DNA of 63,793 nucleotides, filler included, from Basidioascus undulatus (Eukaryota): NCBI GenBank assembly GCA_000826855.1. It is 3 parts of 3 records of this genome, joined end to end, with 100 filler letters (N's around TTAATTAATTAA, not from the genome) between each part and the next. Parts side by side here need not be neighbours in the genome. Positions count along the whole stretch, not along the records: positions 1 to 21,271 come from JTLS01000338.1; 2 more parts are not named here. One strand, 5' to 3'. Within the stretch, counting starts at the first letter, position 1. Each line of letters begins with the position of its first letter. The position numbers and the translations under genes are program-made. Shown in pieces: positions 1-12,120 of this stretch. The notes below the pieces were generated by a model that worked only from the letters and a program-made list of their open reading frames with translations, did no database searches and had not been told where the DNA came from.

Positions 1-2085
1 GAGCCCGCCGATGGCAAAGACGTTCCCGGCGGGGACCTCGTTGACAGCGACGAGGTCGCGGCCCATCATCATGTACAGGTGCTGGACCGTCACACTCGCG
101 ACGTGCTTCGCATTCGGTCCGTCTGTCGCGCGCAAGGCGGTGTTGTACTTGGGCTGGAGGACGCGCACTTCTTGGCCAACGCGCAGCGTGCCCGAGTAGA
201 GACGCGCGAAGCCAATGAGCGCTTCGACGGGGCCCGACGGGCGATCTGCCGGCTGCTCCTCCTCCGTCGCAGGCGTCGCGGGCTCCTCCTCGCGCGCGGG
301 AGAGGCTGCTGGGGCAGCCTGGTCGATCGGGACGGACTTGATTCCCGCTGCCTCGTCGTCAGCGGCGGACATGCCGGTGGCCTGCAGCGCGGCGCTGAGG
401 GCAGCGACGCGCTCTCGGGACGCGCGCCCGCGCTCGCGCATGTCCTCGGCCGTGAGCTCCTTGCGCCTGTTCTGCGGGAGGTCCGCGACGGGCACGGCGA
501 ACATCTTGCTCACGTACGCGACGACTGGCTGGTCCGCGCCCGCGGCGCACGCGTACAGCGCGCGCTCTGTGTTTGTGCTCGGCTCCGTCGGCGGCGGGTG
601 GATGGTCGGGTGCAGCATCTTCGGCAGCCGCAGACGCTGCGCGGACGAGGGCGGTGGAATCTGGTCGACTACCGCGGAGAAGGTTGCCGAGGCGAGGGGG
701 AGCCAGGAGGAGAAGATGGAGGAGAGGAGGGTGCGCGGGTCTTTCGACTTGAGGTCGCGAGGAAGGAGCTTCAGGTTGAGCGCGGAGACGATCTTGGTGA
801 TCTTGTCAGGGTTACTACCCAGAAAAGATGTCAGCGGTGTTCGTCGCTGGGGCTGAGAAGAGGAAACACGCAACGGGTTCATGACGACGTTCTCGTAGAC
901 GGCCCACACGTTCTCGAGCACGAACTGGACGAAGAGCGGCTTGAGCGGGCGCTTTCCCAGCGCCTTCTGGCCGATGATGCGCTTAGTCTTGGGGTCGAGG
1001 TAGAAGTCGCCCCAGAGGACGCGGCGGAGATTGGTCTCCTTGATGCCGAGCTTGGCGGCATACAGCTGCGCGAAGCGGCCGACGCGGAACGCCCACCCGT
1101 CGAGCGCGGACGCGAAGAGCACGTTGCCCTTCTCCGGGGAAAAGTACAGGTCCTCGTCGTCCCGCTCCTCGTACGCCGTCTCGTCCTCGTCCACCGGCGG
1201 CGACGCGGACGCCTCGGCCTCCCGCCGCGCGGCCAGCCGCACCTCCCGCGCCTCGCGCCACCGCAGGTTGTCCTCCATTCGGTCGGAGGCGTAGAAGGAC
1301 CCCATCACGGCGTTGACGTTCTCAATCAGGTTCGATAGGTGGTGGTACGCTTCGACCGGCGCGAGCTTGAGCTCGGTGATCAATCGGTCCATCTTGTTGA
1401 TGACGAGGATGGGCCGCAGACGCTCGGCATAGGCTTGATGGAGCACCGCAATGGTCTAGCGGCGGGACATGCGGCGTTCAGCGAGAGTGCGACCTCCTGG
1501 AGGAAAGGGGGGAACGCGAACCTGAGTGCACACGCCCTCCACCACGTCCACCATAATCAAGGCTCCATCACATAACCGCGACGCCGTTGAGACCTCGCTC
1601 GAGAAGTCAACATGTCCAGGCTGCGTCGCTCCCCCATCAGTCTCGCATTCAGCCATCCACCTCCTTGCGGCACATACCGTGTCGATGAGGTTGATCATGA
1701 AGTCCTCCGCCCTGGGTTCTGATGATACCCACGAAATTCAGCGCCCTGCCCAGTCAAATCCCCTACGTCGTTCTCGCACTCACGTTCATCCTCTCCCGGT
1801 CTCAGCAGCTTGAACGACAAGCTGACGGCACTCGACTCCATCGTAATGCCGCGCTCCTGCTCGTCCTCGCGCGAGTCGAGGTACCGAATCTTGCCGGCCA
1901 TGCGGCTTGAGATGATGTTGTTTGCGGCCAGAAGGGAGTCGGTGTAGGCGGTCTGCAAGCGAGCGCGCCGTGAGCTCTGAAAGCCGTGATCAGGAGATGG
2001 GCGTACGTACCTTGCCGTGATCGACATGCCCCATGATGGCGAAGGACCGCACATTGGTGGAGGAGAAGCGCTTGGAGGAGGCCAT
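1..2085 (-). CDS. EFL1: Elongation factor-like GTPase 1 (ribosome biogenesis, eIF6 release); spliced, 3' end runs off the window start
   Basis: ATG at 2085 gives [70 protein letters not shown], then [39 protein letters not shown], which are the EF-2/EFL1 G-domain motifs. Confidence 0.93.
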
Positions 2086-11299: not shown

Positions 11300-12120
11300 A
11301 TGGTTCGTCCTTCCGCTCGAGCTGGACTTCCGATGGTCGACCTGGGAATGATGGAGAACTCATGCTCTAGTCTGACGCTGGTTCCGAGAAGCCTGAGGTT
11401 GTTGAGGAGGTCGAGGTCGCCGAGGCCGCTGCCCCCAAGGGCAAGCTGTACGTGTCCCTTTCAGCGCGTCATCCGTCCGTACGTGAGACTGAACAGCCAA
11501 TGCTTTCACCCGCAGCTCCGTCGAGGAGGCCCTCCAGCAGGTCCTAAAGAACGCCCTCGTTCACGACGGCCTCGCCCGCGGTCTCCGCGAGTGCGCCAAG
11601 GCGCTGGACAAGCGCCAGGCTCACCTCTGTGTCCTCGTCGAGACCTGCACCGAGGCGGAGTACATCAAGCTCATCGAGGCCCTCTGCGCCGAGCACAAGA
11701 TCAACCTGATCAAGGTCTCAGATGCCAAGGTTCTCGGTACCTGGGCCGGTCTCTGCAAGATCGACCGCGAGGGCAACCCCCGCAAGATCGTCGGCACCTC
11801 CTGCGTTGTCGTCAAGGACTACGGCTCGGAGTCCGAGGGCCTTAACGTCCTCCTCGACTACTTCAAGTCTGTGAGTCATGTCTCCTTGTCGTGGTGTAGA
11901 AGGTGCGAAGTTGGGTGGCCACAGTGCTGGCGGCACAATCCTGAGCGTGGATGATTGTTGGTCTCCCTCTACCGATCTTTCTTGACGGACAAGACCTAAA
12001 CGGAATCGAATTATTATTATGTCTGAGCTCTCCTATCGGCTTTCGTGTTCTTCATCATTCCTGATACGTTGGAGCCGAGGCTGACATCTTCTCTCATGCC
12101 ACCTCGTTCAGCGCCAGTAA
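11300..12120 (+). CDS. RPS12: 40S ribosomal protein S12 (eS12); first coding exon is the ATG alone, last exon encodes RQ-stop
   Basis: [67 protein letters not shown]...[26 protein letters not shown]. Confidence 0.97.
11943..12030 (+). ncRNA. Intronic box C/D snoRNA, SNORD100-like (18S rRNA guide)
   Basis: Lies in the 241-nt last RPS12 intron (11871-12111). Terminal stem GAGC/GCTC, box C-like GTGGATGA (11947-11954), guide CTCCCTCT followed by D' CCGA (11972-11975), box D CTGA (12023-12026). Two segments are antisense to conserved 18S UUCGAUUCCGGAGAGGGAG. Confidence 0.8.

Follow-up and report, generated by a model that had tools for sequence, protein, structure and literature searches.

A predicted SNORD100/snoR30-clan box C/D snoRNA encoded within the last RPS12 intron of the basidiomycete Basidioascus undulatus

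The box C/D snoRNAs SNORD100 (HBII-429) of animals and snoR30 (Z108) of plants are grouped in one clan (CL00073), which has been traced to the last eukaryotic ancestor with no stable intronic location (PMC3511168). Human SNORD100 is published as targeting 18S G436 and as residing in RPS12, a host reported from sponges to vertebrates (PMC3412847), and mouse Snord100 is placed in Rps12 intron 4 (PMC10287158). Arabidopsis 18S Gm392, guided by snoR30, is listed as the equivalent of human Gm436 and has no yeast counterpart in the tables (PMC8583080), and Drosophila Gm393 is listed as shared with human, Arabidopsis and Xenopus and as lacking in yeast and Dictyostelium (PMC11014333). The original prediction for the locus described here made a comparison with the human RNA that agrees with these sources: the SNORD100 guide given there corresponds to the Rfam consensus, target and host are those published (PMC3412847), and the claim that S. 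cerevisiae has no guide for the site is in line with the published tables, which give no yeast counterpart (PMC8583080, PMC11014333).

For fungi, our literature search found no report of SNORD100 or of its pairing with RPS12; the family supplements of PMC5824354 may bear on this. The accessible text of "The fungal snoRNAome", which describes itself as seed-limited and takes its seeds from 231 validated genes in five ascomycete data sets, has no occurrence of SNORD100 or HBII (PMC5824354). The available part of the N. crassa snoRNA table has no guide for the G436-equivalent site (PMC2780460), RPS12 does not occur in the accessible portion of PMC8476143, and the snOPY paper mentions neither SNORD100 nor RPS12. 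The predicted RNA described here is a new fungal member of the clan, and is very probably an intron-encoded box C/D methylation guide orthologous to animal SNORD100 and plant snoR30.

The RPS12 gene and its intronic RNA

The window (the whole stretch of B. undulatus DNA analysed, 63,793 nt with filler) contains the host gene and the predicted snoRNA, composed of the following parts.

11300..12120, + strand: RPS12 (eS12) host gene, four coding exons, 147 aa
11300-11302, 11371-11447, 11516-11870 and 12112-12120, + strand: RPS12 coding exons
11300-11302 and 12118-12120, + strand: ATG start codon and stop codon
11303-11370 and 11448-11515, + strand: introns 1 and 2, 68 nt each
11871..12111, + strand: last intron, 241 nt, phase 0, between S145 and R146
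Within the last intron, + strand: GTGAGT donor, branch-like GCTGAC at 12080-12085, CAG acceptor
11943..12030, + strand: predicted box C/D snoRNA of the SNORD100/snoR30 clan (CL00073), ~88 nt
11943-11946 with 12027-12030, + strand: terminal stem GAGC/GCTC, 4 bp
11948-11954, + strand: C box variant TGGATGA; kink-turn made by its GATGA core and box D
11959-11971 (11960-11970 in the 18S duplex), + strand: D' guide, antisense to 18S and ending at D'
11972-11975, + strand: D' box CCGA
About 11982-11988, + strand: C' box variant TTGACGG, aligned to TGAGGA in relatives
12001-12010 (to 12012 including two G-U pairs), + strand: extra base-pairing element CGGAATCGAA
12023-12026, + strand: D box CTGA

The encoded protein is eS12 (Pfam PF01248; E 5e-54 against solved eS12 chains). 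In a tree of 72 RPS12 proteins with zero ascomycete and zero unicellular holozoan rows it falls within Basidiomycota (100/96), at the base of the clade without resolution; the nearest proteins by tree path are those of Naganishia, Filobasidium and Mrakia, and the best named matches are Agaricomycetes (93-95%). Intron 2 is exactly absent from a contig of a public run that is also consistent with intron 1 being spliced, and the contig of a relative (8 differences in 217 nt) omits a 241-nt GT..AG intron exactly. A contig from run X3, spliced at introns 1 and 2, extends 7 nt into intron 3 (11871-11877) and then ends, a weak hint that intron 3 is spliced late. None of the contigs from the four runs compared reaches the snoRNA, which has no bearing on its expression either way because assembled contigs do not represent small RNAs.

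The long last intron holding a C/D box RNA with a terminal stem had been predicted, and every feature lies where it was placed. The terminal C and D boxes are brought together by the short stem and are capable of forming a kink-turn, the C box being one change off the consensus, and the internal D' and C' boxes are accompanied by an antisense element that runs up to D'. The folding energy of the RNA is ordinary (z 0.14), as is normal for C/D RNAs, and its 3' end is placed ~54 nt upstream of the branch A, a spacing typical of splicing-coupled snoRNP assembly. Following the established C/D pathway, the snoRNA would be co-transcribed with RPS12, assembled with Snu13, Nop56, Nop58 and Nop1 during splicing and trimmed exonucleolytically out of the spliced intron.

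At the gathering threshold, Rfam has no match in the whole window. The Rfam search proposed in the original prediction does find SNORD100, at a score below threshold (RF00609, 16.3 bits against 58, E 5.6), which leaves the RNA outside RF00609 as defined. Other RPS12-hosted non-vertebrate copies also score under this threshold (23.6-34.9 bits), and only the vertebrate-type locus L149 passes it (78 and 70.7 bits). The snoR30 model (RF00046) was not reported for the window in a search that drops overlapping matches of one clan, and four other weak Rfam matches (two microRNA families, COG3860 and PVT1_3) are due to chance. A profile built from eight non-basidiomycete loci ranks 11950-12017 first in the window with 33.8 bits (E 1.6e-9), so that the likeness to the clan extends over the length of the RNA beyond the guide; the next-best match in the window reaches 6.6 bits, and guide-only matches give 19-26 bits. 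A further model, R1, applied to 100 loci, recovered only close kin of its own training set and is given no weight.

Relatives in RPS12 and in other hosts

Metagenomes were scanned with a pattern containing the C-box core, guide and D' only, with the second antisense element not required; copies with deviating boxes escape this pattern, which is also blind to RPS12 genes that lack the snoRNA. The scan gave 114 loci, most of them chance matches, and 20 are hosted by RPS12 (16 identified by tblastn and 4 more on re-searching 38 chosen loci with the full protein). Of these 20, 16 carry the 7-nt core of the second element, as do 3 of the 94 others, and once identical rows are removed the figures are 12 of 14 against 3 of 85; the Fisher p of 4e-11 overstates independence because the rows are kin. 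The three loci outside RPS12 that carry the core (L044, L106 and L140) appear to be genuine members placed elsewhere. The RPS12-hosted loci add to B. undulatus three further lineages of basidiomycetes, three of animals and a single non-Dikarya fungus.

L049, L072, L103 and L127: Serendipita-like fungal RPS12 hosts, L049 and L072 grouping with Serendipita in the tree
L112 and L156: Ustilaginomycotina-like fungal RPS12 hosts, L112 grouping with Ustilaginomycotina in the tree
L137: fungal RPS12 host, 97.7% over 43 aa to Ustilaginomycotina proteins
L052: non-Dikarya fungal RPS12 host, a single contig, outside the basidiomycete clade in the tree
L149 (two copies), L045/L121/L157, and eight loci of one invertebrate group: animal RPS12 hosts

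Conservation of boxes and guide in relatives, named beforehand as a check, is seen in RPS12 of other fungi and of animals. In the four Serendipita-like loci the snoRNA is 92-95% identical, against 59-73% in the intron flanks, and the pair adjacent to the kink-turn is C-G, U-G, A-U or U-A among relatives, representing compensating changes. The C-box position that departs from the consensus in B. undulatus (11949, G in place of a conserved U) is also G in L112 and in three Serendipita-like loci, and A in L072 and L137. Among 120 matches of the L052 protein no named ascomycete appears, the best named ones (68-75%) belonging to chytrids, Mucoromycota and Zoopagomycota, and an ascomycete character was not apparent in any of the 20 RPS12 loci. 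The gene immediately upstream of RPS12 in L052 (349-1137) codes for a Reeler-domain protein whose start resembles a signal peptide. P0179 and P0206, both unspliced read-through proteins, have end residues compatible with the C box, guide and second element, and from the peptide we infer that they may represent two more basidiomycete RPS12 genes carrying the snoRNA. Neither RPS12 nor the 18S motif was found in viral contigs, and the guide-pattern matches in viral contigs (4 and 13), none of them near RPS12, are chance. L113 and L085, placed among bacterial-looking genes, were rejected together with the near-copies L061, L097, L114, L123 and L130.

Outside RPS12 there are nine probable copies, which form seven groups (L044; L125; L106; L140; L054/L148; L083; L074/L133), and the following have a recognisable setting.

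L044: predicted intron 8 nt after an APRT-like stop (E 0.003)
L125: predicted intron 8 nt after the stop of an ORF, which has no Pfam match
L106, 669-895: last intron of a protist uL13/RPL13A gene, second element present
L140: snoR30-like, 31.6 bits

L044 and L125 are probably of fungal origin, we infer. The hosts of L054/L148 and L083 are eukaryotic and apparently non-coding, with several introns and several snoRNAs: on the minus strand, L054 (462-1501) has the SNORD100-like RNA beside short U14-like and H/ACA-like RNAs, and L083 (329-720) has it beside a SNORA73/snR30-like RNA.

The guide, the second element and their predicted 18S target

Positions on 18S were taken from two full-length eukaryotic 18S genes (L018 and L040), not from B. 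undulatus. These came from prokaryote assemblies, with SSU_rRNA_eukarya confirmed in 10 of 12 tested loci, and the target motif was the basis for choosing them; they are informative on position and not on conservation. Eukaryotic 18S context surrounds the motif in ~31 of the 39 prokaryote-assembly matches (L005-L043), and those matches are contamination.

The guide core forms 8 bp with 18S 389-396, after which T11962 is bulged and GG pairs with CC 397-398, giving a duplex of 8 + 2 bp with a calculated -18.3 kcal/mol. Fibrillarin methylates the base paired with the +5 position. On both L018 and L040 the +5 base C11967 faces 18S G392, in plant-type 18S numbering, and the site selected is the G436/G392 site of clan CL00073. 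The predicted target of the D' guide is G392, corresponding to human Gm436, on which the guide would set a 2'-O-methyl group.

The variant C, D' and C' boxes, the Rfam score far under threshold and the folding z of 0.14 are what a chance match, or a decayed copy without function, would also give. Set against this, dinucleotide shuffles of the intron reproduce the two-element layout in only 8 of 5000 cases (scored as an 8-nt guide with a D'-like box and a 10-nt antisense match no more than 25 nt away, anywhere on 18S), the profile that leaves out basidiomycetes reaches E 1.6e-9 with this RNA as the sole match within the window, and the same elements are found in RPS12 of distant fungi, making chance or decay very improbable.

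The second element forms 10 Watson-Crick pairs with 18S 378-387 in addition to the two G-U pairs, and the stretch that it pairs lies just upstream (5') of the guide target. It had been predicted as perfectly antisense to the adjacent 18S sequence, which it is, and it is conserved in relatives even though it was absent from the search pattern. The element ends 12 nt before box D, with a spacing of 11-15 nt among relatives, and is therefore not a D+5 guide. The Rfam snoR30 consensus has GAAUCGAAC after box C', matching the fungal element. Extra base-pairing is reported to raise methylation up to five-fold in yeast and to occur in RNAs with the shortest guides; extra pairing is also listed for human HBII-429, the supplement placing it ~22 nt further upstream (PMC3116282). 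The proposal of an extra-pairing enhancer is upheld in that a conserved element complementary to rRNA stands beside the target; it is refined in that extra pairing, at another site, was already listed for human HBII-429/SNORD100 (PMC3116282). In B. undulatus the element would bind 10-12 nt just 5' of the guide site and, together with the guide, would cover ~20 nt of 18S, offsetting a guide that is broken by a bulge after 8 bp.

The element might instead have a role of its own, for example as a looped-out guide for a neighbouring site or as an 18S-folding chaperone. It is kept in L140, where the guide has no obvious bulge, and it overlaps the stretch listed for the human HBII-202 guide for 18S position 428 (PMC3116282). 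This role is nevertheless rather improbable: the distance of 11-15 nt to box D misfits the +5 rule, the element abuts the D' target, and in the vertebrate-type and insect-like copies, where the guide runs through 10 bp without a break, it is missing (4 of 4 loci). The labels "fish-like" and "insect-like" for animal RPS12-hosted copies are our assumption. The match of the fungal element to the plant snoR30 consensus makes the adjacent position probably the older form, and the sequences suggest that an ancestral adjacent element was probably replaced in vertebrates. In L149 the second element reads GTTACCC, against 3'-CCCACUGU-5' as printed for human; the fetched 18S genes have GGGTAAC or GGGTGAC at the site matching the L149 element, a possible covariation.

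Host history and comparison with known pairs

The animal copies follow K59, K93 or K127 (B. undulatus RPS12 numbering) and occupy three different introns. In fungal RPS12 the snoRNA intron falls close to where the reading frame ends: after S145 in B. undulatus, inside K144 in L137, or past the stop by 3 nt (L052), about 8 nt (Serendipita-like loci) or 15 nt (L112). The fungal position differs from that of all three animal introns observed to carry the snoRNA, so that fungi and animals share the gene and not the intron. The original prediction had named RPS12 as the same host gene as in human, and this agrees with the published sponge-to-vertebrate record (PMC3412847), the shared unit being the gene. 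Wallemia RPS12 has an intron at the position of the B. undulatus last intron. The fungal snoRNA intron lies within about 30 nt of a stop codon even in the two non-RPS12 hosts L044 and L125 (seen at 11871, L049, L072, L103, L127, L112, L052, L137, L044, L125 and the loose ends of the X8/X6 contigs), and the intron may move between hosts together with the last exon, as a 3' cassette. In L149 two SNORD100 copies (252-335 and 642-726, minus strand) occupy neighbouring RPS12 introns; this doublet and the three RPS12 introns used in animals show hopping within the gene directly.

The original prediction left a choice between a pairing that predates the animal-fungal split and one that arose twice. 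The data favour the first without settling the choice, and descent of the shared host from the animal-fungal ancestor is probable in our judgement, which is not a computed value. The RNA would already have resided in RPS12 in that ancestor, would then have hopped between RPS12 introns by local duplication and loss, and would have moved to other hosts or been lost in some fungi. The fungal copies occur in basidiomycetes and in a non-Dikarya fungus, for which one origin with intron hops is simpler than two origins.

Independent placement of a real RNA in RPS12 by animals and by fungi, which we consider unlikely, draws on several observations. Intronic snoRNAs shift over time from one widely expressed host gene to another, often one that codes for a ribosomal protein, and given dozens of families common to animals and fungi, a single coincidence of hosts is plausible. 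The introns differ, and other hosts exist, including a ribosomal-protein gene (L106) and two probable fungi (L044 and L125). The plant snoR30 gene lies presumably in a snoRNA cluster and not in RPS12, and AtsnoR29-1/AtsnoR30/AtsnoR31 we take to be this non-RPS12 cluster. AtsnoR30 is listed between AtsnoR29-1 and AtsnoR31 (PMC8583080), and a survey that proposed constrained drift reports that, across supergroups, no conserved intron holds an orthologous snoRNA (PMC3511168). That survey, as far as its accessible text describes it, compared across supergroups and excluded UTR introns, and so does not test the animal-fungal RPS12 case (PMC3511168). Against two separate placements, the pair is reported from sponges to vertebrates (PMC3412847) and is also held across basidiomycetes and a non-Dikarya fungus, so that only two stem branches are left to bridge, and a change of intron within RPS12 is seen inside animals alone.

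The distribution suggests that the fungal-animal pairing is older than the animal-fungal split despite the different intron, and the host pairing probably reaches back to the common ancestor. The fuller reading, held with moderate confidence, is that SNORD100 has been inside RPS12 since the animal-fungal ancestor, with introns changed and the gene kept, forming a snoRNA-host pair that spans both kingdoms, and, jointly with this, that the fungal RNA keeps an ancestral split guide common to plants for which vertebrates substituted a different extra pairing. On this reading the pair would have been missed because fungal catalogues were seeded from ascomycetes without it and because most of the fungal copies described here lie in 3'-UTR introns, which the earlier survey excluded.

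The set of fungal methylation guides would thereby gain one that is already described in animals and plants and is missing from the catalogues for yeast and Neurospora, and a snoRNA-host pair described from sponges to human would be extended to basidiomycetes and an early-diverging fungus. The locus offers a direct test of whether intronic snoRNAs move without constraint between expressed genes or whether selection preserves certain hosts; retention in RPS12 since the common ancestor, if true, would suggest that the pairing itself is selected for. The relatives also form a natural series for the trade-off between guide and extra pairing, with a bulged guide and adjacent element in fungi and one invertebrate and an unbroken guide with a shifted element in vertebrates.

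Compared with SNORD100/HBII-429 (RF00609), the fungal RNA has the same D' guide core, 18S G436-equivalent target, box order, size and RPS12 host (PMC3412847, PMC10287158). It differs in the intron, at or after the stop codon in fungi and intron 4 as described for mouse (PMC10287158), in a guide interrupted by one bulged base with the score of 16.3 against 58 bits, and in extra pairing beside the target where the human pairing is listed ~22 nt further upstream (PMC3116282). With plant snoR30/Z108 (RF00046) it shares the target (Arabidopsis 18S Gm392), the D' guide and the second element (PMC8583080), although RF00046 was not reported for the B. undulatus window. In common with the extra base-pairing C/D snoRNAs of van Nues et al. 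2011 it has a conserved rRNA-complementary stretch beside the methylation site and a short guide, whereas the stimulation is described as measured for yeast snR75, snR76 and a snR70 construct and not for the SNORD100/snoR30 family (PMC3116282). The fungus-wide pairs RPL7/snR39-snR59 and NOG2/snR191 likewise join a long-lived snoRNA to a ribosome-related host; in those pairs the intron position is kept and the description covers fungi only (PMC8476143), whereas the RPS12/SNORD100-type pair also occurs in animals and has an intron whose position shifts in the neighbourhood of the stop codon.
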